Part shown: positions 8,776 to 48,857 of the stretch, in pieces
Numbering within the stretch: position 1 is the first letter of the stretch
Layout: the number at the start of each line of letters is the position of its first letter
Assembly (NCBI GenBank): GCA_024613925.1
Contig: GCA_024613925.1_4713.1
From: a phage
DNA length: 64,000 nucleotides
Direction: 5' to 3' (one strand)
Notes under the pieces: model-generated
Databases searched by the model: none
Seen by the model: only the letters and a program-made list of their open reading frames with translations
What the model was told of the DNA's origin: nothing
Made by a program: the position numbers and the translations under genes

Positions 8776-8787
8776 GCGGCATAAAAG
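8776..8787 (-). promoter_or_regulatory. TATG-class promoter-like motif (sense CTTTTATGCCGC)
   Basis: Same motif family as 4727-4740; lies between hairpin 8787-8806 and the gene start at 8763. Confidence 0.4.
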
Positions 8788-8806
8788 CCTGCCCCGAAGG
8801 ACAGGC
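8787..8806 (-). terminator. hairpin (GCCTG..CAGGC)
   Basis: Imperfect stem-loop directly downstream of ORF 8817-9017. Confidence 0.35.
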
Positions 8807-8816
8807 TCGATAGAAC

Positions 8817-9017
8817 TTAACGACCATCCAATTTCAATGAAGGATGGTTGACGATATGTGCGTGTTTTGCTGGGTCATATAGCTGATATGGAAAATAGCC
8901 ATGCCATTGACGGCCTTGGCATTTCGTACACAGAAACTGACCAACACCTTGTCGATTCTCGTAAGCGAGTTCGGTACTATCAACATGTTCGCAACGTTCG
9001 CAGATAAACAGCGACAT
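8817..9017 (-). CDS. small zinc-ribbon-like protein (66 aa)
   Basis: Two CxxC pairs (CERC...CTKC). Confidence 0.45.
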   Translation of the reverse strand: MSLFICERCEHVDSTELAYENRQGVGQFLCTKCQGRQWHGYFPYQLYDPAKHAHIVNHPSLKLDGR

Positions 9018-9054: not shown

Positions 9055-10035
9055 TTAGAAAAGCAAGAAACCGCTATTCTTCGCTTCTGCTACAGTTTCG
9101 TCACCGACTTTCGGTGCTTGTTGACGTGCGTTACGGTGTTCGATGTAACGTTTCGCTTCGTCCGCGATTTGTTTGATAATACCCCCTAAACGATCAGTAC
9201 TTAAAACAAACGACGTCGCTTCACGAATTGGGCTGCTTTCAGGCACAAAACCATCGCAGCTGTAAATAGCGCTAACGCCCATGACTTTTGTCGCGTCTTT
9301 CGGATAAAGCGTACAGAAAGCAATCGGGCTATCGTTCTCTTTCGTCCAATCGTATCCCATGAACGTATTCAGTTCGGTGATCGTTGGTTCCAAACCGGTA
9401 ACACGTGGATGGTTTAAGAAGTTTTCCAGGTCAGCGCTGTCAAGACGGCGGTTCTCGCCAGAAAACAGAACACAAAGCTGGCTGATAACAACCTGCACGT
9501 CCAGGTTGACATCCTGCTCCGATTTCCCATTTTCGCCATTCATGTGATAGCTAACAATCACTGGACGTTTCAACCCTTCTGCAGCTGCCATCAGTCCTTT
9601 GAAGGTGCGATCGGCGTTGATCGTTTGACGCTCATCATCGAACGAGGCAACGATGCAACACACCACACGTTCACCGCGTTCCAGCAGGTTAGCAACCAAC
9701 GCAGGACCGGCAACAGAACCTGAACCACCGCTCAAACTAAAGACCACGATATTAAATTTACCTGGCGTATGCTTATTGAGAATACCTGGGATTTGTGAAC
9801 AGATCAGTTCAGCGTTCTCGTCACGCTTCTTACCAGAACCGTCTAACTCACGACCGGCTGCATCTTTAAAGATGTAAATATGATCGTCGCCCAGTGTGCT
9901 ATCGCGTAGGTTAGCGCGGCTGGTATCGACATACGTCATGCTGTGTAATCCTTTCGCGACTTCGCCTTCAAATGCCGAGCCGATTTCGCCACCACAACCA
10001 CCGACAGCCCAAATATGTACTTGGTTCTCTTGCAT
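9055..10035 (-). CDS. phuZ: PhuZ-type phage tubulin/FtsZ-like GTPase (326 aa)
   Basis: N-terminal VGGCGGEIG (FtsZ/tubulin T1 loop, GGGGxN-like) and SLSGGSGSVAGP (tubulin signature GGGTGSG-like); size matches PhuZ; AGGAG RBS. Confidence 0.8.
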   Translation of the reverse strand: MQENQVHIWAVGGCGGEIGSAFEGEVAKGLHSMTYVDTSRANLRDSTLGDDHIYIFKDAAGRELDGSGKKRDENAELICSQIPGILNKHTPGKFNIVVFSLSGGSGSVAGPALVANLLERGERVVCCIVASFDDERQTINADRTFKGLMAAAEGLKRPVIVSYHMNGENGKSEQDVNLDVQVVISQLCVLFSGENRRLDSADLENFLNHPRVTGLEPTITELNTFMGYDWTKENDSPIAFCTLYPKDATKVMGVSAIYSCDGFVPESSPIREATSFVLSTDRLGGIIKQIADEAKRYIEHRNARQQAPKVGDETVAEAKNSGFLLF

Positions 10036-10045
10036 GTGAACTCCT

Positions 10046-12165: not shown

Positions 12166-12990
12166 TTAACTGTCGCTTTCTGATGTATCAACGTAGTTGA
12201 AAATACGATCCCGTAAACACTCATAACGAGGCAACGCACTAAGAATGATCATCTTCAACTGCATCGCGATCGATATGCGTTCTTCATCCGATGCATCATC
12301 TCCCCATTTACCCGGCTTAACCTGAATAGGTTCATGCGGATCCTGCGGGAATATAAAACTTAACAACAGATAATCCGTACGGAACTCCCACACTTCTCGA
12401 CCGTCGTTATCGGTTTCCTTACGCAACGTGAAGAGTTGACGTTCGGTGGTTGGATCCAGCATCAGCGGTCGACCACGAACAATCTCCAGTTTACGTGGGC
12501 TGACGAACGTTGTACGTTCCGGAAGGTATTTTTCAACATCATCCGTATCCAGCAAGAACAAAATGATGTCGTCGAAATACTTCGGTGCGTACGTGTGTAT
12601 CGGTTCACCATCGCTATACGAAGAGATCTCTTGGAGTATTGGTGTCTTACACGAAAAGTTCTGGCATGAACCACGGGTGATCGGTAAGGTGGCCCATTGG
12701 TGTTCTGTAGACAACTCAACTGGCACCAACGGATAATCATCGATGAAGACCACGCACGTTGTGCTAATGGGTATTCTTCCATCATTACCTGGTTCAAAAA
12801 CCAAACGTATCTTACCGGTAATCAGCGCCATCTCGTCCGGCATTAAATGGCTTGCTGAACGGGCAAGCCTGAAACCGGCCGCCTGTTTATAAGGTTCAGG
12901 TTTATAGCCACGGACAATAAGAGAGACATCCGCAAGTTCAACGCTCACGAATACATCTTTGGTGTCTTCATTGTTCGTCGTTAACGTCAT
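12166..12990 (-). CDS. hypothetical protein (274 aa)
   Basis: ORF in co-directional array. Confidence 0.5.
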   Translation of the reverse strand: MTLTTNNEDTKDVFVSVELADVSLIVRGYKPEPYKQAAGFRLARSASHLMPDEMALITGKIRLVFEPGNDGRIPISTTCVVFIDDYPLVPVELSTEHQWATLPITRGSCQNFSCKTPILQEISSYSDGEPIHTYAPKYFDDIILFLLDTDDVEKYLPERTTFVSPRKLEIVRGRPLMLDPTTERQLFTLRKETDNDGREVWEFRTDYLLLSFIFPQDPHEPIQVKPGKWGDDASDEERISIAMQLKMIILSALPRYECLRDRIFNYVDTSESDS

Positions 12991-14005
12991 TGTTCATTTT
13001 CTCCATTGCAACGAATCGTTCAAGCTCGCGTAATAAACGCTCTTTTAACGCAGGATCAACTTCCGGAGCATGTTTATCGCGATACCATTCGGTCCCGTTG
13101 TATTGCAGGCTAACATGCCATGTTCCTAACGGGCTTTCCTCTGCAGCGGCGATGAAATTCTTAACGCCGGTTTTGGTAGGATACTCCATGATAGGAACGG
13201 CCTGCTTCAGATCCATTACGGTAAGATCCTGGAAGTTATAATCCAGAAGCGTTAATGCGCGTTTGTCGCGTAGCAGTAGCCCGCAATCTAAGATGGTGAA
13301 ATCGATACCCCAGAAACGTAACTTGCCTCCAACCCCAACAGGGGTATGGCCACGATAAACCGCGAGATAAATCTCACCTTTATCGGTTTCTTTGTTGTAC
13401 CCAGCAATAAAAGCAGCTGTGATTAATGGTTGGTGTCCTTTCGCTAAGAAGGCAGGGTGGTTATGATACAACCAGTCACTACGAATCAGATCGGTAACCT
13501 GACCTAAACGTGCTGTTGGTACCATCACCGATCCCAGAGTTTCATCAACAGGAACCTGGTAATATTCAAACAGAACACCATCAATTTCTTCGGTAGCGTA
13601 AGGCGTACGTGTGGGATCGTTAAGGAGTTTACGGAGTTTTGTGTCGATTTCGTTAACACGGCTACCCTGTTCTTTCTCGCGGCTTCCGATAACAAAAGCA
13701 ACAAGATTGCGTACGCTAACAAAAACATCATCTTTCTCGGTGTCGCTAAGATCAGCTTCATCAGGCATTGTTGTCCAATGTAGTGGACCTTCAACAACCT
13801 TAAGCCATTTATCTTCGCGTTCAGGATAAACAAAAGGCTTATGCACAGGAACACTGGTGTGCTGAACACGTAATAACAGATTGCATAACGATGGTAATGT
13901 TTTCTCTAGAGGCGGCACTATACCACTCGTGACAGCGATGACGTGACGATTAAGAACAAGAGAAGCTGAATAGGTGATGTTATCTAATCCTGGTAATTGA
14001 TCCAT
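12968..14005 (-). CDS. hypothetical protein (345 aa)
   Basis: ORF; promoter-like motif AACTTAATATGT 25 nt upstream. Confidence 0.55.
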   Translation of the reverse strand: MDQLPGLDNITYSASLVLNRHVIAVTSGIVPPLEKTLPSLCNLLLRVQHTSVPVHKPFVYPEREDKWLKVVEGPLHWTTMPDEADLSDTEKDDVFVSVRNLVAFVIGSREKEQGSRVNEIDTKLRKLLNDPTRTPYATEEIDGVLFEYYQVPVDETLGSVMVPTARLGQVTDLIRSDWLYHNHPAFLAKGHQPLITAAFIAGYNKETDKGEIYLAVYRGHTPVGVGGKLRFWGIDFTILDCGLLLRDKRALTLLDYNFQDLTVMDLKQAVPIMEYPTKTGVKNFIAAAEESPLGTWHVSLQYNGTEWYRDKHAPEVDPALKERLLRELERFVAMEKMNNDVNDEQ

Positions 14006-14044: not shown

Positions 14045-14306
14045 TAAAAGAGGTTATGTTTTACGTCATATTCGATGTATGTATTAATGAATTAGAATAC
14101 TTGTATTTTTAAGTGAGTATAATAATAGTAATAAACCTAAATTAATCTCTATTGCTTATTGTTCTATCTAAAGATAGTAAACAGATATAATGCTCCCCAC
14201 CTCCCCATTCTCCCAAGTAATACTGGCCTACCGGCCCTCTCCTTTTTAAGGGAGAGAGTAAGCATTCAGTATTGCTCAAATGAATAAGCAAAACAGTATA
14301 AACTTA

Positions 14307-35466: not shown

Positions 35467-36597
35467 TTATTTAGCGTCGTTAAAGTAAATATCAACAGCT
35501 CGTTCCGTTGCGTAGAGGAGACCAAGATTCACAGTCCCAACCACTTCCGGTGAACCGATGATACGGTTAGCGATACTGGTGCCACTGAAGATAGCATCAA
35601 GGGTGTGCCCGTCTTCGGTTTTGTTCACACCATGACCCACGGAAGAGACAACGGATTTCGCTTGTGCTGCGAAGGTACCTTTATCACCCATCCCCGCACC
35701 AAGGTCGTAACGCATGAAAATACGGATAGCGATCTGGTTCTCGCCTAACGGATTGCCGTCTATTCTCACGTTACTATTGTTGATACGCCCTGTTGCTGCC
35801 TCGTTGAGTTTCAGTTCCTTAACGCGTTTAGCTCGCGCTTTATCCGCTTCACCGACGAGCGCCGCCATGGTTTCACTCATATCCTCAATCTGAGCACGGT
35901 ACAGTACATCGATCTGTACAACTTCACCATGAACGTCAGCACGTGGGTTATACTGACTCATACGACGTAATGCTTCAACGGCTTCCTGACTCTCATCACT
36001 CAGATCGGTTGCAATCGGTTCTTCCAGTGTTGCAAGAATCGTTCGTGGTTCAACGTGATCACCGATTTTCACAAGACCACGAATATTGAGATGGGCGTCA
36101 ACGATGAGCGTACGGCTCTTAATCGATGGTGTTACGAGACGATCGGCAAGATTGTCGAAGATATACGAACTGTCCTCGTGCGTCTCTGGAATATCCAGAA
36201 TACCGACAAGAGACAGCACACCTGCGCGCCAAACAACCTGGCCTGGGTTCCACCAATCGCGTTTGAAATAAAGACGATGGAAAACCACCACATCCTGATC
36301 CTTAACGCGATCCCCGACTTTATAATCGGTAATGAGATCGTGAGGATAATACTTACCTGGCCCTTTCCCGATTATCGTACCGAGCTGGAAAACCTCTTCC
36401 CCTAACTCTGGATCGTCGTATTGTATCGTAAGCGCAGTTTTGGTGACCTTCTTAACAACACCATCGCCTTGGGCGGCGGCCGCGAAGAGTTTACCAACAC
36501 GATGCGCGATAACAGTCTCACCGCCGGTGCGCCACGGTTGTACATCGTAACCCTCAGCGGCAATCATGCGGTTGTGCTGTATACCTATAAATACCAA
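35467..36597 (-). CDS. RNA polymerase beta-like subunit, downstream exon (catalytic double-psi barrel region); true exon probably begins near 36545
   Basis: GMGDKGTFAAQAKSVVSSV (beta GDKxxxRHGNKG region) and DGHTLDAIFSGTSIANRIIG (beta [21 protein letters not shown]-like); N-terminal TGGETVIAHRVGK...GDGVVKKV resembles beta [14 protein letters not shown]...GGVVQYV; no RBS before the apparent TTG/ATG start. Confidence 0.6.
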   Translation of the reverse strand: MVFIGIQHNRMIAAEGYDVQPWRTGGETVIAHRVGKLFAAAAQGDGVVKKVTKTALTIQYDDPELGEEVFQLGTIIGKGPGKYYPHDLITDYKVGDRVKDQDVVVFHRLYFKRDWWNPGQVVWRAGVLSLVGILDIPETHEDSSYIFDNLADRLVTPSIKSRTLIVDAHLNIRGLVKIGDHVEPRTILATLEEPIATDLSDESQEAVEALRRMSQYNPRADVHGEVVQIDVLYRAQIEDMSETMAALVGEADKARAKRVKELKLNEAATGRINNSNVRIDGNPLGENQIAIRIFMRYDLGAGMGDKGTFAAQAKSVVSSVGHGVNKTEDGHTLDAIFSGTSIANRIIGSPEVVGTVNLGLLYATERAVDIYFNDAK

Positions 36598-37090
36598 TCT
36601 CTTGGGCGAATTTAGTTCTTATTCAACATAATCGTACTATTACCAGAATAAGACTGAGATTAGATTGTTCAGATAAGGTCGTTAATCTTATCCCGGAGGC
36701 GACGATAGGCACATCACCTCCCGCTTGCGCTCTCACGCAAGAGCAGACTATATCACATCTCGTTTCAAACGGTGCTTCTTCAGCACCTCAACGAGAGTTC
36801 ACTTCTTCCCAGCGCATCCAGCGCCATTCTCTTATCCAAGGAGAATGCCTCACTCGAGGGGTACAGGGGGATGAATCCCTTAGTCGTTGAACCTTTACCT
36901 TAGAACGCTTCACAGCGATCCTTAGGTACTTGGCTGCGGATTGTCCTTAAGCTATTATCTGTTTTTATAACCATACCGTCTTTCTTTTCAGAATCCGTTT
37001 TGGTCGATAACAGCGATGGATGTCTTCGCAATTCAGTGAATCTCATCTACATGTCGCCACATAGACGGACCCTGCTATTAAAAGCGTTAA
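36545..37090 (-). ncRNA. group I self-splicing intron (no intron ORF); boundaries approximate
   Basis: On minus strand in order: P-like AATTGCGAAG (37024-37033), Q AATCCGCAGCC (36932-36942), R GTTCAACGACTA (36881-36892), S GATATAGTCTG (36744-36754); flanking ORFs together give a contiguous RNAP beta sequence. Confidence 0.6.
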
Positions 37091-40000
37091 TCATCTCTAT
37101 CAGCAGCAGGTACTGCAAGCGCCGACGTACTCATTATTGACGAGCTACCATCCGTTTTCTCGTCGTAAGGTTTCGTTTCACCGTATACAGACACAATGTT
37201 TGCGTTAGGTGCGAGGTAAGCAGAAATACCTACGTCCCCACTATCCTTCGTACCTTCGGATACAACACCAATGTCCGACTTGTCGTATTCACGATCGCGT
37301 GCGCGTCGAAGCGATGTCTTTGAACGACCCCCGATACCGGTCATCGTCGCTTCTTCACCCTGCTTGATATCCAGCATCGGGTTGGTTTCATCGATTACGA
37401 TGGAAGCGCTGTCGTCGAGAATCTGGTTCCAGACGCTTACCGGACTGATTGAGATTTTCTGGCGGTTTCCTTGACTGCTGTTCTCATTCTGACGAATAGC
37501 GCCAACCAGATCCTTATACACCAACTCAGCGAACTTATCGTACGTTTTAAAACGTTGGTAGTTCACATCGTTCGTGTTAGGTGCCCAATCATCCAGAAGC
37601 AGTTCGACGGCACGCAGTAACAACATGGCGAAATCGGTAGGTTCTCCCATGTTCTGCAGCAACGTACGGCTTACCGGATCAACGAAAAGACGCTCCATGA
37701 GTTCAAGTTCGCGTAAATGGCGAACCTTAAGTCCAGCCCCATCGACAACGTTAAAATAGATATCTCGATTGTCAAAAGCGCCGCGAGCGTAACCAATGTA
37801 GTTACGGTATTCGTTAAACCCACCCAGCAACAACGTCGTCATGCGATCGTCTTTACTGAAGATCAGACTTTCGTCGTCAAAGCTCACCGCGAATTCATCG
37901 GGTGCTAACCCCATACGAGAGCCGCGAGGTACCGTACGATAGTTCGCTTTAAGATGTTCTAATAACGGGGTAAGCCCACCCAGATAACTTAGAACAACAC
38001 CGACCGGAATACGTACACCCATGAATTCAAGATCGGCGGCTTCGATCGGCATCTTAGCCGCATTGATACCGAAGAAATCAGGGAACGTCCCTACAGGTGT
38101 TGGTGTTTGTCCTGACTGACAGATATAGAGCTGATTGCGTTTATCGATTGCTAAGAATTCACCCAGCGTGTTACGCGCAAACGTCAGGAGTCCTTCGGCT
38201 AACTGTTCGTTGAACCGATCTTCCCCAATGAACTCCGGCAATGTCTTTGTATCGAGACGTATATCCCAATCAGCAAATTGGATTTGGGTATAGTTGCGTG
38301 CAAGCACAGCGAAGTAATACGGAACTTTGACAGCTGGATCAAAGACGTTACCACGTTTCAACGTGGTTAAGGGTGAGGACTTATCGTAATACATCGCCGT
38401 AAGTTGACGTGTTAGCCAACGACCCGCATTATTAACGACACGCTCTGAACGTTTAACAAACACCTTACCGTAGGCGGTACTCAACGCAACTTCAGATGAC
38501 GATACCTTTCTAATAGGTTTATCAACACGTTGTTTACGCATCCGGTATTTGATGCCGTTAACGACATAAATGCCGTCCTTACGAACCTTCGGCAACATCA
38601 CCGGGAACGTGGTCGGGACACCGCCTACAGGAGCCAGTTTAATCGTGATGACTTGATAATCCCCCATCACGTCAACAACATCTTCAACTTTATATCCCGT
38701 GACAGGGTAACCTGCCTGCTGTACCGCAACGACGGCAGCTGCGATGTCCTTTTGCATTACGTGTTCAACGTAATGTTTATCCCACACCGCAAGCGTCGAT
38801 TTACACAGGCTCTTATCGACGATAACATCCGCTTCCGGCATAACCTTTGCAGGCGCTAATTTTGCGGCTTTTGGTTTAACTTCAACATACTCAGCAAGTG
38901 TTAATCCAGAACCGTCGGGTGCTTCGATTTCATGGATGGCGTCAGCATTACGCATCGCTGCTTTATATTGGACACCGCTTAACTGACCCGCATCCGCCAG
39001 ATCGCTCGCGCGTACCAACACCGCATCCGATAACGACTGAATATATTCGCCATGCGTTTTCGGTAACGTTGCCGCGTCAAAGACATCAACCTTTTCTTCT
39101 TCGGTATCGTCGGTAACGACTTCGAAGAGATCGTCGGTAATGTCCTGATCTTCATCGGGCTGGAAATCTGGTTGTACTTCTACCCCGGGTACTTCACGGA
39201 CATCTTCGAACGAGCGTTCTACAATGGCGTTCCACGCATCGGCATCATCGTCTTCATCCGACCCACCGACCAACTCCGCTTCTAACTCGTCGGGATCAAG
39301 AACGGTAGCGAGATCCTCACCGTTAGGAAGCACGACGTCGCGATCATCATACTCCGCATCCGGGCTGTCCGCAAGAATATCTCGCTCTTGACGAAGAACC
39401 TGTTCCTCTTCTTGTTTCTGTTCTTCTTCATTCGCGCTCTGCGACCACAGACGTGTTACCGCCATCATCCAACGACGTTGGAAGGTTTCAAGTGTCGTTT
39501 TATCGAGTTCTTCCCCTTCCTTCACAAGTCCGGTACGCCATTCTTCCAGCAGGCCGAGATTCAGCGTAAAGAAGTACACACCGTCTGTAAATACGATGTT
39601 AAGCTTATCCAGCGTGGCTCTGTCTAACGAAGCCATCGTGCTGTTCTCACGATCGGTTCCCAACCAGCGGAAGAAGTCAAAGAACGACAGCTCCTCCGGT
39701 GTGGCGAAATTCATGAGGTTATTACGGGTCGGTGCCTGTTGCGTGGTACGCATCAACGAAATCTTCGGCAATGTTGACGGTATACGGAACAACAAAAAGT
39801 GTTGGCGATCGCTTTGCTGTGCGATTTCGTTGGCTTTCGACCAAATTGTTTTACGTACGTTGAACCATTCATCATACCAACGGGTGAGCGTTGGACGATA
39901 AATGTACATGTGGTTAAGATGCGCGTAGTTAGCAACGATCTGAGCGTTGATGTTTTTCTCCACCGTGCTTAGATCGGTAACCAAACGAAAACGACGATGT

Positions 40001-40296
40001 GATGCACGATAATCCAATTTCGCTCGTGGGAGTTGGAATCGTTGATCACGTCGAGGTGCACCCTGTTTGGTTGCGAGATCATCAGCAAACGAAATCCATA
40101 GTTGAGCACTTTCTTTACTCAGCATGTATTCGTTTTCTGGAGGACCTATCAATGAAGGATCCGTTGCGGTGTAATGATAGACAGCATAACGCGGCAGCTG
40201 CAATAGCTGCACTAAACGTAATCTTGGTGATAGTAACTCTTGGTAGCGTCTGACACCAAACTGTCGGTAGTAATCAAGGTATTTAAGTTTTGCCAT
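37087..40296 (-). CDS. RNA polymerase beta-like subunit, upstream exon (N-terminal and middle regions, with acidic N-terminal extension)
   Basis: KDGIYVVNGIKYR (beta DNGTFIINGTERV-like), CQSGQTPTPVG (CPIETPEG-like), PLLEHLKANY (PFLEHDDANR-like), terminal ALAVPAADRDD (RQAVPTLRAD-like); GGAG RBS; start 3 nt after the beta-prime stop. Confidence 0.6.
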   Translation of the reverse strand: MAKLKYLDYYRQFGVRRYQELLSPRLRLVQLLQLPRYAVYHYTATDPSLIGPPENEYMLSKESAQLWISFADDLATKQGAPRRDQRFQLPRAKLDYRASHRRFRLVTDLSTVEKNINAQIVANYAHLNHMYIYRPTLTRWYDEWFNVRKTIWSKANEIAQQSDRQHFLLFRIPSTLPKISLMRTTQQAPTRNNLMNFATPEELSFFDFFRWLGTDRENSTMASLDRATLDKLNIVFTDGVYFFTLNLGLLEEWRTGLVKEGEELDKTTLETFQRRWMMAVTRLWSQSANEEEQKQEEEQVLRQERDILADSPDAEYDDRDVVLPNGEDLATVLDPDELEAELVGGSDEDDDADAWNAIVERSFEDVREVPGVEVQPDFQPDEDQDITDDLFEVVTDDTEEEKVDVFDAATLPKTHGEYIQSLSDAVLVRASDLADAGQLSGVQYKAAMRNADAIHEIEAPDGSGLTLAEYVEVKPKAAKLAPAKVMPEADVIVDKSLCKSTLAVWDKHYVEHVMQKDIAAAVVAVQQAGYPVTGYKVEDVVDVMGDYQVITIKLAPVGGVPTTFPVMLPKVRKDGIYVVNGIKYRMRKQRVDKPIRKVSSSEVALSTAYGKVFVKRSERVVNNAGRWLTRQLTAMYYDKSSPLTTLKRGNVFDPAVKVPYYFAVLARNYTQIQFADWDIRLDTKTLPEFIGEDRFNEQLAEGLLTFARNTLGEFLAIDKRNQLYICQSGQTPTPVGTFPDFFGINAAKMPIEAADLEFMGVRIPVGVVLSYLGGLTPLLEHLKANYRTVPRGSRMGLAPDEFAVSFDDESLIFSKDDRMTTLLLGGFNEYRNYIGYARGAFDNRDIYFNVVDGAGLKVRHLRELELMERLFVDPVSRTLLQNMGEPTDFAMLLLRAVELLLDDWAPNTNDVNYQRFKTYDKFAELVYKDLVGAIRQNENSSQGNRQKISISPVSVWNQILDDSASIVIDETNPMLDIKQGEEATMTGIGGRSKTSLRRARDREYDKSDIGVVSEGTKDSGDVGISAYLAPNANIVSVYGETKPYDEKTDGSSSIMSTSALAVPAADRDD

Positions 40297-40299
40297 GGG

Positions 40300-41946
40300 T
40301 TAGGCTCCACGAGGTCCCGTTAAGTTGCGTAATAGGAACGCAACCGTATCGTAACCAATATCAATGTTGAATTTATTTTTACCACTTACCCAGAAAGCTC
40401 GCTTCTTGTGCGAGTTGGTAATTTCGTCAATAGCTTCCATGGAATAAAGAACGTTAACCGAGACCGTATCACCGTCGAAGTCCGCCCCGAGGCCAGCTAG
40501 AAACACCTGGCCGACTTGGGTCGTTTCTACAAATGACGCTTTCAATGACCAATCTGGGTATTCCCATGCCATATACCGATCGCCTTCTAACGGTTGCCAA
40601 TCGACACCGAGTTCTCTTCTTGGCTTCGTGTTAACTGTCGTCCGCACATAGCAGGTTAACGGTATAACTGATTGCATTCCCGATACTGGATAACGTGTCA
40701 CCATCGCACCGAGTTTATTCCAAAGATGATAACCGCTCAGATAAACCAATTCGCAGTATGTAACCGGATGAACATTAGCGCCAGGTTTGTTCAGCATCTC
40801 TGGGGGTATTTCACTCATGCCACGGAATAACCGAAACGAATCGTTGTTCACATAGACGAGGCAAAGATAACGCCCATTAACCATGATAGGTTCGTTACGC
40901 ACACCAGGATCGCTTAGCGTGTTCAGTAAACGTTCGATACCGTCCCACGTTGTAAAGTCATCGATGGTATCTGGGTCTAACGTGACGCGTTCACGTTCCA
41001 TCGTTTCGGTATCGATAAGCTCAGCTTCAGTAACATCACGAACAAATATTTCCTGCAAAATCCCCGTACGTAATGCGTGCTGTGTGATAGGAAGAGCAGC
41101 CTTGCTCATCTGATATAGACCAAGTTGTACTGATGTACACGAAGTCTGGTTCGGTGAGCCGAGAACCTCTGTAGTTGGGATGACAGCCGAAATAACGTTA
41201 CGGGTTGAGTTCCAAACGCGACGTGAACCGAACTTCCCTTGGAAGATCCCTTTCTTACCTTGGAACATATCCAACAACAAAGCGTAGATATCGTTGAATG
41301 TTCTCTGTAAGCTCCAGCGCTGGCCGTCGTAAACGGGATCGGAATAATCTTTTAATCCATCAGGGACGGTGTTAGAAATTGCAAGGAAACGACGATACAA
41401 CTCCGTGATTTCTTGCTCGCTTTCATACCCGCCTTCTTTTACTTCTATTTCACGTAAGCCTGCAGGTAATACCAGTAAGTGACGGGTCATCGCTTTGAAC
41501 ATGTTCTCTTCGACAACTTTAATTCGTAGCTCTCGTTGAGCTGAACCCGTTGAAACGAACTTGATATCCGCGACGTGTTGTGCAAAGAACCCGTATCCTG
41601 TTTGTCCTGTTAACGCATCAGACGCAACGAAGTCGCGTTGTTCAGGATCCCAACGAGCATACGCCTTTCCCGACATGATATCACCATAGAGGTGTTTTAG
41701 TCGAATGAGGCGGTCGTAAATGACAGGGTGCAGGATTTCAACCTTGCATTCAATCACCGCAAATCGACGGTCTCGATCTTCACTACCTGCACTACCAAAG
41801 ATGGTGTAAGAATAGAAACCATCATCGTGGAAATTACCGGTGCTTGGGTCACGAATGCTCATGCTCGTGATCTTGGGGAGAAAACGTAACTGCTGTTTAT
41901 CGAGGTGTAAAATACTAATGTTAAACGGCTCTCTGACTTTAGCCAT
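40300..41946 (-). CDS. RNA polymerase beta-prime-like subunit, N-terminal catalytic part (548 aa from ATG 41946)
   Basis: GADFDGDTVSVNVLYSMEA matches the universal beta-prime NADFDGDQMAVHVPLTLEA; GKFGSRRVWNSTRNVIS resembles GKRVDYSGRSVIT; AGAGGAG RBS before ATG 41946. Confidence 0.7.
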   Translation of the reverse strand: MAKVREPFNISILHLDKQQLRFLPKITSMSIRDPSTGNFHDDGFYSYTIFGSAGSEDRDRRFAVIECKVEILHPVIYDRLIRLKHLYGDIMSGKAYARWDPEQRDFVASDALTGQTGYGFFAQHVADIKFVSTGSAQRELRIKVVEENMFKAMTRHLLVLPAGLREIEVKEGGYESEQEITELYRRFLAISNTVPDGLKDYSDPVYDGQRWSLQRTFNDIYALLLDMFQGKKGIFQGKFGSRRVWNSTRNVISAVIPTTEVLGSPNQTSCTSVQLGLYQMSKAALPITQHALRTGILQEIFVRDVTEAELIDTETMERERVTLDPDTIDDFTTWDGIERLLNTLSDPGVRNEPIMVNGRYLCLVYVNNDSFRLFRGMSEIPPEMLNKPGANVHPVTYCELVYLSGYHLWNKLGAMVTRYPVSGMQSVIPLTCYVRTTVNTKPRRELGVDWQPLEGDRYMAWEYPDWSLKASFVETTQVGQVFLAGLGADFDGDTVSVNVLYSMEAIDEITNSHKKRAFWVSGKNKFNIDIGYDTVAFLLRNLTGPRGA

Positions 41947-42068
41947 GGAGACACTCCTCTTTACCACCACCGGCTGCGGCGGTATCATCTGAACACACGA
42001 GAGACGTAATGGGTGATGGCGTCACCCATCGCTTCCTTGCCTGATGCCAGGAAGTTATTAGGTTACGT

Positions 42069-42093
42069 GCCTGCTTGATAAAATCAAGCAGGC
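42069..42093. promoter_or_regulatory. perfect palindrome GCCTGCTTGA-TAAAA-TCAAGCAGGC in divergent intergenic region
   Basis: 10-bp perfect inverted repeat between divergently transcribed RNAP and giant virion protein genes; a second palindrome ATGGGTGA/TCACCCAT lies at 42009-42029. Confidence 0.3.
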
Positions 42094-42191
42094 GATGTGT
42101 GAAGTTACGCTTCAACATTATCAATGCCGAAGGTAAGCTTCGTGCATCACGTTCCAACGTAACATGGGAACGTATCGAACTGGAGGTATAC

Positions 42192-45100
42192 ATGGTAGAT
42201 AAAACCCGTGTTGAGGGTGATGATAATTGGGATAACTGGGATGATGACTTCTCCCTGGATCTCGATTTTGATGAGCCTAAAGACGATCGTAAGCCAATAA
42301 CACGCTTTGCGGTAGGGGCGGTTAAAGGTGCTGCTGAGGATCTTACTTCCTACGAAAGAATGAAGGAGATCGCCAGAAACGCATTGCCTAAGGGCTACAG
42401 CGACGGTATGGATCTTATTGATTCCGCCGTCGGATCCACGAAGGAACTATACAATGAAGCCGTTCGTGACGTTCTTCCTAAGGTCCAAAGCTCAAAACGG
42501 TTAGCAGCACAACTAACCAAGAAATACCGTGCGAGCATGCCCGATTTCTCGAAGAAAATTCTCGAGCAATGGGAGCGAGAAGCCAAGGAAGAAGACGAAC
42601 GTAAACAGGCTGAAGCAGAACTCAAGCAACGCATGGCGAGCGCGGGAGATAATGAAATCGCCCGTAAGGTTGCCGAAGCGTTAGGCGAATCAGCAAACCA
42701 AAGCGCGGATCAGTTTGCCGAACAGCAAGCAAAAGAAAGTATCCGTGACGATATCGCTGACAAACGGTACGCTGTAACCAACAAACAAATGAGTGCGATG
42801 CAAGAAGGCGTCGCCAAGATGGTTGGTTTCAACAATGAATTCGCTGCGCGCTACATGCGTAAAAGCCTGGAACTGAAATATCGTTCCTTAGCGATTCAAC
42901 GTGCAAGTTTTGATCAGCATAAAAAGTTAGCCGAAGTCTATATCGGTTTATTACAAAACATCCAGAAGAACACGGCTTTACCTGATGCGGCTAAAGCGAA
43001 AATGTCGGAAGAATTCCGTCGTAGTGCATACCAACGTTTCTTTGGTAATACGTTAGATGCGATGAGTTCTTTCGAGAACCGTTTCTTTGCCGATGTTAAG
43101 AAAAACCTATCCAGGAACATCGTCGGAGCTTTATCGGGATTCGCTGAAAGCAGTCGAGACGCACTGTCTGGCCTCGCCGAAGTGAAAGACGGTATGTCCA
43201 TGATGGATGGAATTGGTTCGGAAGGCGATATAAAGGAGATGAAGGGGAGAATGCTGGGCCAGCTTATCGGCACGGCAGTAACCCCATGGCTTGCCGAGAA
43301 AGGATCGACAGCACTACGTGATTTTGCAAAACGCCATCCTAACTCAAAAATCGCATCCGCAATAAAAACCATTGATGCTGGTGGCGATGCGGCCGCATTT
43401 ACCAGTCGTAACATCGGTAAAATTCTTCAAGAGGACATTCGGAAAAACCAGTTTAATCTCAGCGATCCGTGGTATAAACGTTTCTTACGGGATACCGGAA
43501 GCATGATGTTCAACATGGACACCGGACGTAACTTCCGTGTGATGAACGACACCGCTGAAACACTGGCGGAGCAAACGTCTTTCGACGGTTTAACTTACCG
43601 CAGCATCAATGAAGTTATTCCTGGTTTTCTTGCACGCATTCTGAAAAGCAGTGAAGGCATCCGTACGGGAAACAGCGATCCTGACTACGAGGTCTATGAC
43701 AGCATCAGCGGGCAATTCGTGGCTCAGCGCACGCGTGAACAAAGCGTCAATGACACGCTGTTTAACAAACGTACATTTGGTTATTACGCCAGCCGTTTCA
43801 ACGAGGTTATCTCGGTCATCGATCCCGATAAGAAATTATCGGATAACGCAAGAAAAGGATTAGCAAAACAGCTAGCTCGTGACAGCGACGCAAACATTGC
43901 ATTCGACCCGGCTCGTTTTACGGATGAAAGCAACTTCGATCGTAGTATCGACCGTGACGCTATTAAGGAACTTTCTAATTACTTCCGTAACCGTTACGGT
44001 ATCGACTACGTACCCGATGAAAAAGGACAACGCCATCAGGTCATTGGAAACCGCGGGCAATATTACACGGAACGTAACCGAGCTGACCTTCGCTACGGTA
44101 ATTTGAAATCGTTACAACCGGATATCCAGCGTAACCTTAACCTACTGAAACGTACTGGTGACGTCCAATATCTGGAACGGATTGGGATTGTAACGAGAAA
44201 TAGCGACGGAAGCTACTCGGTTAATCACGATCGGTATTTCTCTGAAATCGATCGATACATCGACCGACCGGAGTACGCTGAACGCAGTGATGTTAATACG
44301 CGATTAACCGCTCAGGAAACAAGAGCGCTGGCGCTGGGTTATCGTGACGCAAAACCATCAGTTGATGACGTGCAAAATGCGGGTCGGCCACACATCGATC
44401 GTAAGGCTGTTGGAACAGTAACCGTTGATGAAAACATCGGTTACGATAAATGGTGGAACGACACAGGTGTTATCACCACATCGCTTGAAGAACAGAATCG
44501 AGCGTGGCAAGAGCTTTATCTCGAAGCGTTATCTGAAGCATCCGAACAACGTACTGAAATGCTTGCGTTGCTGAAAGCCATTTCTGAGAAAGACTGGTCT
44601 AATAACGTTTCGTTGGATGGCGAAGATGTACCTGAAGGTGCGGCACCCATTTCATTTATCGATCGCGCCAAACAAAAACTCGGTGCACGCAACCTCTTTA
44701 AAGGCGGTCGTAATCTCCTCTGGAAAGGAATTAAAAATACCGCACGTCTGGGTGTTAAAGGCGCACGCTGGGGTGCAGAACGCACGTTGGGCAGTTTGGT
44801 AAATTCTGGCCGACGCATTATCAATTTCAACCGTTTTGTGTTCGGTGCATTATCCAAGGTTGATCAGGTTCCGTTTGACATTTACGTTAAAGGGGAATCC
44901 CAGCCACGCATATTGGCTGCCAAACTTCGTCAGGGGTTATACTTCGACGAAGCGACAGGAAAAGCTGTAAAACGGATGAAGGATATCAAAGGTCCACTCG
45001 TTGATGCGGATGGAAATATCGTAATCAGTAACGAGGATATCGAGAAAGGGTTGGTCACTCGCGCTGGTCGTGCCTTTGAGAATTCAGGACTTAAGGCGTG

Positions 45101-48100
45101 GGCACGTGAAGGTCTTAATGGAATCACAACGGTATTAAGTCTGCCACGGATGTTAAAACGCGGTGCGGTCGAGATCTACAAACAGCTTGACAAAACACCC
45201 GACGTTTACGTCAAGGGAGAATCAACGCCTCGTCTGTTGTCCACGGTGTTAGCAGCGGGTGGGTATTTCCGTCGGTCGGATGGACAAGTCATCAAAAATC
45301 TTGAAGACATCGATGGTGATGTTGTTGATGCACAAGGTAACGTCGTACTTACGCTTGCCGATATGCAGAAAGGACTTGTCGATAAATACGGTAAAGCGGT
45401 TCGTCGCTTAAAAGAAAAGCTCATCAACTTCGGTGTAAAAGCTTTTACGTTACCGTTAACGCTGCTGCGTAAGACGAAGGACATCCTTAAAGCCCTTCCA
45501 GGTAAAACCGTTAACGGTCTACGACGGATGGGATTAAATTTCCAATCACCTGACGCATTACTGGTGGGAACAACGTCGAGCATGGTAGATCGTCTCGATG
45601 CGATTTATAAGCTCCTCGACCAGCGTATGCCGGGAGGCGATAAGGATTACCGCGATTGGAATGGCGATGGTGTTCGAGAAGGATCGTTGGAAGACCTGAA
45701 ACGTAAGCGCGCGGCCAAGGAAAACGGTAAGGATGACACCGGCAAAGATTCCGGTAAAGGAGAAGAAAAGGAGAAGAAACGAGGATTACTCGGAAGCCTT
45801 TTCGATATGCTTGGCGATACCGCATTAGGTAAACGACTCATGGCGAGTCCGCTTGGAAAAATTCTAGGTGGTCTTGGGGCGGTGTTAAGCGGCGGAGCAT
45901 CGTTAACCGGATTGTTGGGTAAGGGTCTCATTAGTGGAACCGGCGCGCTAGTCAAGGGAGGACTAAGTGTGGCAGGATGGTTAGGACGTGGTGCGTTAAT
46001 GGCGGGCGGGGCCGCATTGAACGCCGTTGGTGGGTTATCGGGATTAGGTGCATTCCTCATCTCACCTGTTGGGCTTGCTATTGCAGGTGGTGCATTGGCT
46101 GCTTATGCTGGATGGAAGATCTATCAGCATTTCGCCGAGAAGCCTGACCCGATGCAGAAGCTCCGTCTTATTGCATACGGTGCAAAAGGGGACGATAAAG
46201 ACTTCAATAAGAAGCTGCTTGCGACAGAAACATACCTCACCGACCATGTGGTTATGACCGGGGATACCATCGGATTCGATCCGAAAGCCGATTCTGAAAA
46301 GATTCTCGAAATCTGGGAATTGTCCCTGGAAGATTCCGACCGAATGAACGAATGGAAACGCTGGTATCTGCATCGTTTTATTCCTGTTTTCGCTCGCGCG
46401 TACAAACTCTGGAAAGAGCATATGCCGGACGAGAAGAAATACATGGAAATGGATAAATATCCAAACGGTGAGAACAAAGTGAAATGGTCGGAAGCGTTTA
46501 TCTGGCCTTCCGATAGTCCTGACGGTCCGTATTACGTCGAAGCTAACCCGTTGGGTTCTTCTGGTGCGACGCGTTATATTGCTGGTCAAGACGTCAAAAC
46601 CTTGATGCTGAAACAACTCGAAGCCATCAAGAAAGAGTACCAGAATCAGATCAAACAATACACTCATGATGAGGCTATTGCTGATTGGTCACGGATGTCT
46701 GACACACAACGTAAATCCGTTGCGCCTAACGCATTACGCGGTCAGAAAGCGTCGTTACGTTTTAACGATAAGCGTTACAACAGCGCTGGCGCTAAAGGAC
46801 GACAGAAGCTTGACGCAACCGCCGTTATTGAAAGCGTAGACCGCCGTGGTAGGAAATGGGTTGCTGGTGGATACATCGATGAACTCACCAGTCTCCGTGT
46901 TCGCGCGTACGGTATCAAGGTTCCGTTGTTAAGTCAGATAAAAGTGCTGATGGAACTTGAAGACGCCGTAGAACCCGGCGTTGTCGCTGAAGGTAAAGGT
47001 GTTAAATACGGTGGCGATCTTGTTGCGCTCTACAAGAAATTCGCGACGAAGTTCGGAAGAGACGTTAACAGCAAGCGGGATCAGGATATCTGGTTTGCTT
47101 GGATGAATAACCGTTTCCTACCCGTCTTTTTAACCTACTACCAACAAGTTAGCGAAATGGGCGGTCAAGGTCTTCTGTCCGACGTGGTACAGAACCTGAA
47201 AGACAGCCAACGTTGGGAAATCGGTGAAGCACTTGTCGCAACGCAATACCGTGATGAGAAAGGTACACTGCAGCCTGTATGGTCCTGGAATAGTTGTGGT
47301 TTCTCCGGTACTGAAGCTAACACCATCAGCAGTTCAACAAAGAGCCAACTCGATCTGTTAAAAGAATATGCGGATAAAGAGAAGGTTCGTGAGAAGAACG
47401 CGGAAGCATCGCAAGAGGATACCGATAAATTATCGAAGATCCAAGAGCTGATGATGAAGCAGGCTGGGTACGAGAAGAAAGACGGTGTCTGGCAGAAGAA
47501 ATCTCGCATTACCGGCGGGATGAGTAACTCCGAAGCGAATTACAACCCCAGTGGGAATAGGGTGGGTGAAAGCAGCTTTACGGCTTCGGCTACCTCCAAT
47601 GCGGGATTAGGGTCAACCGGCGATGTTACTGGATTGCCTAACATGGGCTTACAGAAACCTGCAACGGGACCAGGTCCTGAAGCTGGACGTCGTGCGCTTG
47701 TTAAATCCGCTGTAAAACGCGGCATTACCGATCCAATGGAAATGGCGATGTTCCTTGCGAATATCGAACATGAATCGGGGAACTACACTCACGTACGTGA
47801 GGGGAACTATAAGACACCAGAGCGTCTTAAACAGGTCTTCCCTTACAAATTCCGTGATGTGCAGGATGCCGCACAGACGATCAGCATGGGGCCGGAAGCG
47901 GTATTCGAACGTGTGTACGGTAATCGTAAAGATCTCGGAAACACACAGAAAGGGGACGGGGCGAAGTATTTAGGGCGTGGCTTCATTCAGGTTACCGGTA
48001 AAGCTAACTACGCTCGTTTGTCTAAGACCTTGAATAAGGATCTTGTCAGCGATCCGACCTACCTGGAAACGCCGGAAGGTGCAGCGGAAGGTAGTGTTGC

Positions 48101-48857
48101 ATGGTGGCTCAACCGAGGTAACGTATTACGCGATCCCGCAAAACGGGGTGACGTACGCCAAGTTCGTTATCTGGTTAACGGCGGCTATAACGGATTACGT
48201 GATGTTGAACAACGTTCTGCTTATTGGATTCAGGCGGCTAAGAACGGCACCCTGAAGAAAATGATGGACGAGTTATCAGGGTCAACATCGGACGATCAAG
48301 CTGAAGGACCGACCACTGCCGAACAGGTGAAGAACGAAGCAGCACAAGAGGCAAACGGAACACCTGCTGTAAGCAACGATCCGCAAGCTCCAGCGCCTTC
48401 TACCACCCCTGAAGCTAAACCGTCTGCGGCTGCCGGGACGGCTCCAGCGCCAGGAGAAGCATCGCCGACACCTGGAAGTTTCGAAACAGCAAAAGCCGCG
48501 GCAGGACAACCGACATCAACTCCAGCACCTAGCGATTTGCCGTCAAACCCGGGCGCAAATCGAGGGATATCGGTTCCGAATACGCCTGCACAGGTTGCGC
48601 AGTCTGCGACACAAACATCGGTTGCAAGTGAGAACTTCTACGGCAGCGCAGGTGAAATTCTCCGACAGCAGCTGACCACACAGCAGAACATCGAGAAGAA
48701 CACCGGTAGAACCAATGAACTTATTTCGGAATTAATCCAAGCCGTTAAAGGTTCTTCTATCGGTAAGGGTTCTGCAGGTCCTTCTCAACAACAGACGATG
48801 TCGCTACCTAATCGTCCGCAAGGAATCTCTCCAACACGGACAAGGTACGCACAGTAG
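42192..48857 (+). CDS. giant virion protein (2221 aa) with GH19-type lysozyme domain; phiKZ gp181-like tail/ejection lysin
   Basis: GGAGG RBS before ATG 42192; lysozyme domain at about 47721-48250 (ANIEHESGNY...YLGRGFIQVTGKANY); Gly-rich hydrophobic segment at about 45780-46120; low-complexity A/P/T/S C-terminus. Confidence 0.7.
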   Translation: MVDKTRVEGDDNWDNWDDDFSLDLDFDEPKDDRKPITRFAVGAVKGAAEDLTSYERMKEIARNALPKGYSDGMDLIDSAVGSTKELYNEAVRDVLPKVQSSKRLAAQLTKKYRASMPDFSKKILEQWEREAKEEDERKQAEAELKQRMASAGDNEIARKVAEALGESANQSADQFAEQQAKESIRDDIADKRYAVTNKQMSAMQEGVAKMVGFNNEFAARYMRKSLELKYRSLAIQRASFDQHKKLAEVYIGLLQNIQKNTALPDAAKAKMSEEFRRSAYQRFFGNTLDAMSSFENRFFADVKKNLSRNIVGALSGFAESSRDALSGLAEVKDGMSMMDGIGSEGDIKEMKGRMLGQLIGTAVTPWLAEKGSTALRDFAKRHPNSKIASAIKTIDAGGDAAAFTSRNIGKILQEDIRKNQFNLSDPWYKRFLRDTGSMMFNMDTGRNFRVMNDTAETLAEQTSFDGLTYRSINEVIPGFLARILKSSEGIRTGNSDPDYEVYDSISGQFVAQRTREQSVNDTLFNKRTFGYYASRFNEVISVIDPDKKLSDNARKGLAKQLARDSDANIAFDPARFTDESNFDRSIDRDAIKELSNYFRNRYGIDYVPDEKGQRHQVIGNRGQYYTERNRADLRYGNLKSLQPDIQRNLNLLKRTGDVQYLERIGIVTRNSDGSYSVNHDRYFSEIDRYIDRPEYAERSDVNTRLTAQETRALALGYRDAKPSVDDVQNAGRPHIDRKAVGTVTVDENIGYDKWWNDTGVITTSLEEQNRAWQELYLEALSEASEQRTEMLALLKAISEKDWSNNVSLDGEDVPEGAAPISFIDRAKQKLGARNLFKGGRNLLWKGIKNTARLGVKGARWGAERTLGSLVNSGRRIINFNRFVFGALSKVDQVPFDIYVKGESQPRILAAKLRQGLYFDEATGKAVKRMKDIKGPLVDADGNIVISNEDIEKGLVTRAGRAFENSGLKAWAREGLNGITTVLSLPRMLKRGAVEIYKQLDKTPDVYVKGESTPRLLSTVLAAGGYFRRSDGQVIKNLEDIDGDVVDAQGNVVLTLADMQKGLVDKYGKAVRRLKEKLINFGVKAFTLPLTLLRKTKDILKALPGKTVNGLRRMGLNFQSPDALLVGTTSSMVDRLDAIYKLLDQRMPGGDKDYRDWNGDGVREGSLEDLKRKRAAKENGKDDTGKDSGKGEEKEKKRGLLGSLFDMLGDTALGKRLMASPLGKILGGLGAVLSGGASLTGLLGKGLISGTGALVKGGLSVAGWLGRGALMAGGAALNAVGGLSGLGAFLISPVGLAIAGGALAAYAGWKIYQHFAEKPDPMQKLRLIAYGAKGDDKDFNKKLLATETYLTDHVVMTGDTIGFDPKADSEKILEIWELSLEDSDRMNEWKRWYLHRFIPVFARAYKLWKEHMPDEKKYMEMDKYPNGENKVKWSEAFIWPSDSPDGPYYVEANPLGSSGATRYIAGQDVKTLMLKQLEAIKKEYQNQIKQYTHDEAIADWSRMSDTQRKSVAPNALRGQKASLRFNDKRYNSAGAKGRQKLDATAVIESVDRRGRKWVAGGYIDELTSLRVRAYGIKVPLLSQIKVLMELEDAVEPGVVAEGKGVKYGGDLVALYKKFATKFGRDVNSKRDQDIWFAWMNNRFLPVFLTYYQQVSEMGGQGLLSDVVQNLKDSQRWEIGEALVATQYRDEKGTLQPVWSWNSCGFSGTEANTISSSTKSQLDLLKEYADKEKVREKNAEASQEDTDKLSKIQELMMKQAGYEKKDGVWQKKSRITGGMSNSEANYNPSGNRVGESSFTASATSNAGLGSTGDVTGLPNMGLQKPATGPGPEAGRRALVKSAVKRGITDPMEMAMFLANIEHESGNYTHVREGNYKTPERLKQVFPYKFRDVQDAAQTISMGPEAVFERVYGNRKDLGNTQKGDGAKYLGRGFIQVTGKANYARLSKTLNKDLVSDPTYLETPEGAAEGSVAWWLNRGNVLRDPAKRGDVRQVRYLVNGGYNGLRDVEQRSAYWIQAAKNGTLKKMMDELSGSTSDDQAEGPTTAEQVKNEAAQEANGTPAVSNDPQAPAPSTTPEAKPSAAAGTAPAPGEASPTPGSFETAKAAAGQPTSTPAPSDLPSNPGANRGISVPNTPAQVAQSATQTSVASENFYGSAGEILRQQLTTQQNIEKNTGRTNELISELIQAVKGSSIGKGSAGPSQQQTMSLPNRPQGISPTRTRYAQ

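Follow-up and report, generated by a model that had tools for sequence, protein, structure and literature searches.

The closest described relative of the tubulin analysed here is PhuZ of Escherichia phage vB_EcoM_Goslar, the filaments of which form a vortex that rotates the phage nucleus, and not a bipolar spindle (PMC9891218; PMC12908238). The Goslar PhuZ variant D202A hyper-assembles, is dominant negative and abolishes the vortex (PMC9891218); in its presence, rotating nuclei fall from 97% to 29%, with the remainder slowed (PMC9891218). The Goslar nucleus is not enriched at midcell, and its position is unaffected by D202A (PMC9891218; PMC12908238). In Pseudomonas and Erwinia phages, the canonical task of PhuZ is to position the nucleus (PMC12908238). 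PhuZ is an accessory protein, being non-essential and missing from around one-third of the Chimalliviridae (PMC12908238; PMC11724907), and the phages that do without it include Asesino and Ariel (PMC11724907; PMC12908238).

Here we examined an intact minus-strand open reading frame in a phage window (the whole 64,000-nucleotide stretch of DNA that was analysed) that the initial annotation, which gave no strand, had called a PhuZ-type phage tubulin. That call is correct. We assign a probability of about 95% to the reading that the ORF encodes the PhuZ of a Goslar-like Escherichia coli chimallivirus, a GTPase of the tubulin/FtsZ superfamily that works by the mechanism set out below. Nothing in the data contradicts this reading. 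The protein is already known, because a relative that differs from it by a single conservative substitution has been imaged in cells, studied by mutation and solved structurally; the gene marks the window as DNA of a nucleus-forming jumbo phage and adds no new biology.

The family assignment is carried by a full-length match to PHROG 4733 (phrog_4733, 'tubulin PhuZ'; E = 2.9e-68, residues 1–323 of 326). In a search of all PDB chains, the best match was 9pm9/9pmk, deposited as 'Tubulin/FtsZ GTPase domain-containing protein' (E = 4e-220), from which the query departs at a single residue; the same query found the PhuZ structures of phiKZ (3zbp; E = 8e-29, residues 5–292) and 201phi2-1 (3r4v/3rb8/3j5v; E = 6e-15). 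Such matches greatly exceed what chance would give. The Goslar ortholog HOV27_gp234, annotated 'tubulin PhuZ' in RefSeq, is identical at 325 of 326 positions (99.7%), the exception being D229 in the window and E229 in Goslar. Pfam Tubulin (PF00091) matches at E = 8e-7, with a score of 29.9 bits that falls just below the 33-bit gathering score. A single-sequence AlphaFold2 model was poor (mean pLDDT 38.8, pTM 0.40); we infer a two-domain tubulin/FtsZ fold because the protein is nearly identical to the solved 9pm9/9pmk and homologous to 3zbp and 3r4v.

The sequence features of the protein agree with this assignment (Table 1). The ORF, which ends in a TAA/TGA stop, contains the two glycine-rich loops in the order that had first been noted, T1 (residues 11–19) and then T4 (residues 100–111), as in tubulin. 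Within them, GGCGGEIG (residues 12–19) has the GGxG form and SGGSGS (residues 102–107) is GGGTGSG-like. The Pfam Tubulin GTPase-domain match (residues 9–151) encloses the T1 loop, and in HMMER alignments the T4 loop pairs with 'sMGGASGSTIGP' of phiKZ and 'sLGGGSGSVLGP' of 201phi2-1. Further along the chain, D199-x-x-D202 and N205 align with 'LDvhDvaNW' of 201phi2-1 PhuZ.

Table 1 Coordinates of the PhuZ gene, its sequence features and its neighbours in the window
Feature	Coordinates	Strand	Description
Chimallin (nuclear shell protein ChmA), N-terminal 365 codons	1..1096	minus	Cut by window start
Intrinsic-terminator-like hairpin and U run	8781..8808	minus	10-bp stem, -18 kcal/mol, z -3.6
66-aa CxxC...CxxC zinc-ribbon-like ORF	8817..9017	minus	37 nt downstream of PhuZ; ortholog of Goslar HOV27_gp235
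PhuZ coding sequence	9055..10035	minus	326 aa, ATG start, stop included; intact ORF
C-terminal tail DETVAEAKNSGFLLF	9058..9102	minus	Residues 312-326; conserved G322 and hydrophobic tip
Codon 229	9349..9351	minus	Asp here, Glu in Goslar and PDB 9pm9; sole amino-acid difference
T7-type catalytic loop D199-S-A-D202-L-E-N205	9421..9441	minus	D202 codon 9430..9432
T4 tubulin-signature loop SLSGGSGSVAGP	9703..9738	minus	Residues 100-111
T1-type glycine loop VGGCGGEIG	9979..10005	minus	Residues 11-19; nucleotide-phosphate binding
Shine-Dalgarno AGGAG	10041..10045	minus	5 nt upstream of PhuZ ATG; reverse complement of GTGAACTCCTAAC...; same in Goslar
DUF7484 / PHROG 3179 gene, 280 aa	10100..10942	plus	Pfam E 1.4e-87; divergent from PhuZ, 64-bp spacer

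We aligned five PhuZ proteins: that of the window and those of a phiKZ-like phage, PhiPA3, Erwinia phage Ea35-70 and Serratia phage Moabite. The window protein is 24–27% identical to the other four. To the invariant positions the T1 loop contributes G12 and G13, the T4 signature G103, G106 and S107, the T7 loop D199, D202 and N205, and the C-terminal tail G322; G66, G68, K69 and R71 are invariant as well. When a profile built from this alignment was run against PDB chains, it ranked PhuZ structures highest (E = 1e-138 to 1e-83), then TubZ of phage c-st (5e-13) and then FtsZ (4e-6), with tubulins, BtubA and Asgard tubulins at E = 0.1 or weaker; the best matches are thus to PhuZ and not to unrelated GTPases. 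FtsZ and the eukaryotic, bacterial and Asgard tubulins share the superfamily GTPase domain with the window protein (PF00091, E = 8e-7; FtsZ chains, E = 4e-6) but are very distant, the tubulins at E = 0.1 or weaker, and their C-terminal domain and biological role are unlike those of PhuZ.

The PhuZs of the Pseudomonas phages phiKZ (gp39; 3zbp/3zbq), 201phi2-1 (gp59; 3r4v/3rb8/3j5v) and PhiPA3 (gp28) resemble the window protein in family, domain order, the T1, T4 and T7 loops and a C-terminal glycine with a hydrophobic tip, and they too are encoded by chimallin-bearing jumbo phages. They differ in being only 24–27% identical to it, and in two features of the C-terminal half. Pfam PF22334 (TubZ_C_2, the phage tubulin-like C-terminal domain) matches the other four of the five aligned PhuZs (best E = 3e-43), whereas it gave no match in the window protein even at E ≤ 1. 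This miss reflects a C-terminal half that has diverged in the Goslar lineage; that half nonetheless aligns to PhuZ in the PHROG and phmmer comparisons. The tail of the window protein is also less acidic, with only three acidic residues (D312, E313 and E317), fewer than in the other four aligned PhuZs, and a hydrophobic terminus is kept across all five (GFLLF, GLVFD, GFVV, GMFL and GMFFS). Work on PhuZ201 reportedly describes an extended C-terminal tail, with an acidic 'knuckle' and a hydrophobic end, that is used for filament contacts. By analogy, the tail of the window protein may take part in longitudinal contacts.

Because its C-terminal domain is invisible to PF22334, its tail is less acidic and its identity to other phage tubulins is at most around 33%, the Goslar-type PhuZ, a deep, divergent branch, could form a filament architecture unlike the three-stranded PhuZ201 polymer. 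We regard this idea as tentative and rather doubtful. If it were true, a non-three-stranded architecture might explain why Goslar makes a vortex instead of a bipolar spindle, and the insight would come from the deposited 9pm9/9pmk rather than from the window. A search of the available literature found no paper describing 9pm9/9pmk or the filament structure of Goslar PhuZ. The Goslar lineage is an outlier among PhuZs, and a helpful one when vortex architectures are to be compared with spindles.

The window as a whole comes from a close relative of Goslar. In a megablast search, Goslar matched the PhuZ locus at 97.9% identity, and an alignment of 63,414 columns shows the window to be colinear throughout with Goslar positions 171,805–237,260 and 96.3% identical in nucleotide sequence. 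The phage is Goslar-like (genus Goslarvirus) and only distantly phiKZ-like. The initial placement in a phiKZ-like jumbo phage holds in so far as the phage is a chimallivirus; close kinship with phiKZ falls away, given the 24–27% identity to the PhuZs of the phiKZ-like phage and PhiPA3. Goslar PhuZ (gp201 in MK327938, HOV27_gp234 in NC_048170; PDB 9pm9/9pmk) agrees with that of the window in length, position, neighbours, ribosome-binding site, terminator and GTPase motifs, including D202. It differs in the conservative change at residue 229 and at 22 of 981 nucleotides, and the two phages differ by around 3.7% across the genome and in the intron content of their virion RNA polymerase (RNAP) genes.

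The two phuZ genes differ at 22 nucleotides, every one of them a third codon position in the minus-strand frame, and 21 of these changes are synonymous. This third-position pattern confirms that the minus-strand frame is the coding one, rather than the short plus-strand ORFs (59–74 aa) inside 9055..10035, which we rejected as non-coding because variation follows the minus-strand codon positions. The same comparison indicates, at the level of sequence, purifying selection on phuZ. Across eight genomes, 54 of 55 variable sites in phuZ lie at third positions; as a test of selection this wider count is circular, because six of the genomes were picked by exact protein identity, so that variation among those six is synonymous throughout, and only the comparison between the window and Goslar is unbiased. 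Outside phuZ, the insertions and deletions of at least 6 bp relative to Goslar in the 63 kb are confined to a cluster at 14052..14115, a deletion at 13558 and two intron loci. The cluster consists of small, in-frame-sized insertions (15, 6 and 9 bp) just upstream of a 345-aa ORF at 12968..14005, and the 6-bp deletion at 13558 lies inside that ORF.

The surroundings of the gene are those of a chimallivirus. A nucleus shell gene had been predicted nearby, and chimallin is indeed present around 8 kb from PhuZ: the fragment at the window start matches Goslar chimallin (PDB 7sqt; E = 4e-238, residues 4–368), which the Goslar annotation names 'nuclear shell protein'. The split RNAP and gp181-like protein that had been noted were also borne out, as orthologs of multisubunit RNAP genes at 35467..41988 and a large ORF at 42075..48857, so that PhuZ sits in a chimallin-bearing genome with multisubunit phage RNAPs. 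The hallmark that defines such phages is chimallin. The initial annotation gave PhuZ that rank, and what stands is that PhuZ is a strong indicator of a chimallivirus; absence from around one-third of them speaks against a defining hallmark.

Downstream of phuZ, the small zinc-ribbon-like ORF gave only sub-threshold matches in PHROGs and Pfam (Zn_ribbon_Elf1, E = 1e-3; PHROG 'transposase', E = 5.6e-4). The hairpin that follows it is kept in Goslar and carries a terminator annotation there, although a simple terminator scan of the locus did not return it. It is likely to be the end of the PhuZ transcription unit and, given this conserved hairpin beyond it, the 66-aa ORF is probably co-transcribed with PhuZ as one unit. 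A scan of the PhuZ locus for sigma-70 promoters and terminators gave counts that were not above those of shuffled sequences, and we made no promoter call because phages of the chimallivirus type use their own RNA polymerases. On the other side, the DUF7484 gene diverges from phuZ. PhuZ of Erwinia phage Ea35-70 (Ea357_207) is also flanked by a divergent neighbour (Ea357_206), to which the Goslar annotation terms its own DUF7484 ortholog 'weakly similar'. In the corresponding position, Serratia phage Moabite has a gene with the annotation of a phiKZ042-like virion head protein. The arrangement may represent a conserved pair of divergent genes.

With this identity, the following mechanism can be proposed. 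PhuZ would bind GTP through its T1 and T4 glycine loops and polymerise head to tail, the T7 loop (D199/D202) of one subunit completing the GTPase site of the next. GTP hydrolysis would render the filaments dynamic, and the conserved C-terminal tail probably strengthens the longitudinal contacts between subunits. In infected cells, a vortex-like filament array is expected to wrap the chimallin-enclosed nucleus, push on the cell membrane and so rotate the nucleus, a movement thought to spread capsids over the nuclear surface for DNA packaging. The formation of filaments and a vortex, the dependence on D202 and rotation without positioning were established for the 99.7%-identical Goslar PhuZ and would extend by analogy to the window variant; the conservative difference between D229 and E229 presumably changes nothing functionally.

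A different division of labour would follow if this were a PhuZ of the Pseudomonas type, building a bipolar spindle with the main job of centring the phage nucleus at midcell. The homology to the phiKZ and 201phi2-1 proteins agrees with that idea, as does the canonical positioning role in Pseudomonas and Erwinia phages (PMC12908238); the Pseudomonas-phage spindle both rotates and centres the nucleus, whereas the Goslar type forms a vortex and rotates it (PMC9891218, PMC12908238). It is the Goslar protein, however, that stands one residue from that of the window, and by microscopy it makes a vortex in cells in which the phage nucleus is not midcell-enriched and D202A has no effect on positioning (PMC9891218; PMC12908238). 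We consider a spindle of this kind very improbable here. The earlier statement that PhuZ positions the nucleus accordingly does not carry over to this lineage, in which rotation has been demonstrated and D202A leaves positioning unchanged (PMC9891218; PMC12908238).

Two further readings have next to no probability in our view. The five-PhuZ profile finds TubZ of Clostridium botulinum phage c-st (4xcq, 3v3t) at E = 5e-13 over the GTPase domain, and this protein and plasmid TubZ share that tubulin/FtsZ domain, around 200 residues, with the window protein; on that likeness, the gene could encode the motor of a type III partition system, segregating phage or plasmid DNA by way of a TubR/centromere adaptor. 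However, PhuZ matches are stronger by 70–125 orders of magnitude and extend over the full length, a similarity that TubZ lacks. TubZ segregates DNA together with TubR and a centromere, whereas the neighbours here are the DUF7484 gene and the small zinc-ribbon-like ORF, with no DNA-binding or partition match in PHROGs or Pfam, and the phage belongs to the lytic chimalliviruses and is no plasmid-prophage. The dispensability of PhuZ, which is non-essential and lost in around one-third of chimalliviruses (PMC11724907; PMC12908238), could instead suggest a decaying or functionless accessory gene. Against decay, the full-length ORF retains every catalytic motif, together with a good ribosome-binding site and a conserved terminator, it has accumulated 21 synonymous changes and one conservative change relative to Goslar, and the identical protein recurs in hundreds of assemblies. 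We therefore retain the reading of a functional, vortex-forming PhuZ.

We searched 50,697 phage records for this PhuZ with tblastn. Homologs were found in 173, and all 40 of the 40 records listed are jumbo phages of 203–309 kb. PhuZ at least 99% identical was found in two Goslar records only; all other records were below 60%, the highest among the matches listed being 33% (tblastn). Goslar is the only Goslar-like phage in the curated phage collection, and a megablast search of complete E. coli genomes and PLSDB plasmids with the PhuZ locus gave no match. Public assemblies gave another picture: the exact window protein occurs in 850 blocks of assemblies, 156 of them with contigs longer than 200 kb. 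We examined six near-complete contigs of 236–241 kb with the exact protein (ENA ERZ27268788, ERZ28577443, ERZ28566068 and ERZ28648121; NCBI GCA_024682255.1 and GCA_024608925.1). In the region of PhuZ, each shows around 98% identity to the window, and no exact match occurs among the six. Because they were picked by exact protein match, these contigs carry D229 by construction and are uninformative on the frequency of E229. Goslar-like phages are thus common in metagenomes, with the D229 form widespread among them, and they look far commoner there than in isolate collections. The recurrence of one protein on DNA backgrounds around 2% apart, in hundreds of assemblies, points to tight conservation of an accessory cytoskeletal gene.

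Apart from the PhuZ finding, the most interesting thing we saw concerns the virion RNAP genes, in which two group I intron polymorphisms account for all of the structural difference between the window and Goslar. The RNAP proteins gp205 and gp207 are reported among the Goslar virion proteins (Goslar structure preprint). In the window, an Rfam search identified a group I intron (RF00028) at 36724..37091 on the minus strand (56.2 bits against a gathering score of 50; E = 1.4e-11). It is contained in a 507-bp insertion (36597..37103) at a point where Goslar is uninterrupted. The insertion splits the ortholog of Goslar gp207, the large virion RNAP subunit (1448 aa), into ORFs at 37087..40296 and 35467..36597, with gp207 residues 1–1069 mapping to 40296..37090 and residues 1071–1448 to 36603..35470. 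It contains no ORF of at least 120 aa.

Conversely, the window is without 2,084 bp of Goslar (NC_048170 211754..213837) that hold an annotated group I intron and gp206, a homing endonuclease with HNH_3 and NUMOD1 domains in Pfam. The intron-free gene in the window (40300..41988; junction at 40480..40519) is intact and encodes 562 aa. Residues 1–503 map to Goslar gp205, which is annotated as 502 aa, and residues 504–562 are 100% identical to Goslar 211753..211577, which lies past the intron; because these 59 residues match there, the Goslar gp205 annotation appears to miss a second exon of 59 codons. These two 96%-identical phages thus both have group I introns in their virion RNAP genes, at sites that differ between them. 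Next to these genes, the 2260-aa plus-strand ORF at 42075..48857 is the ortholog of Goslar gp204 ('tail fiber protein', with a lysozyme domain; gp181-like). The sole stretch of the window in which both GC skew and AT skew are strongly positive coincides with this ORF, and fits a long plus-strand gene among mostly minus-strand genes.
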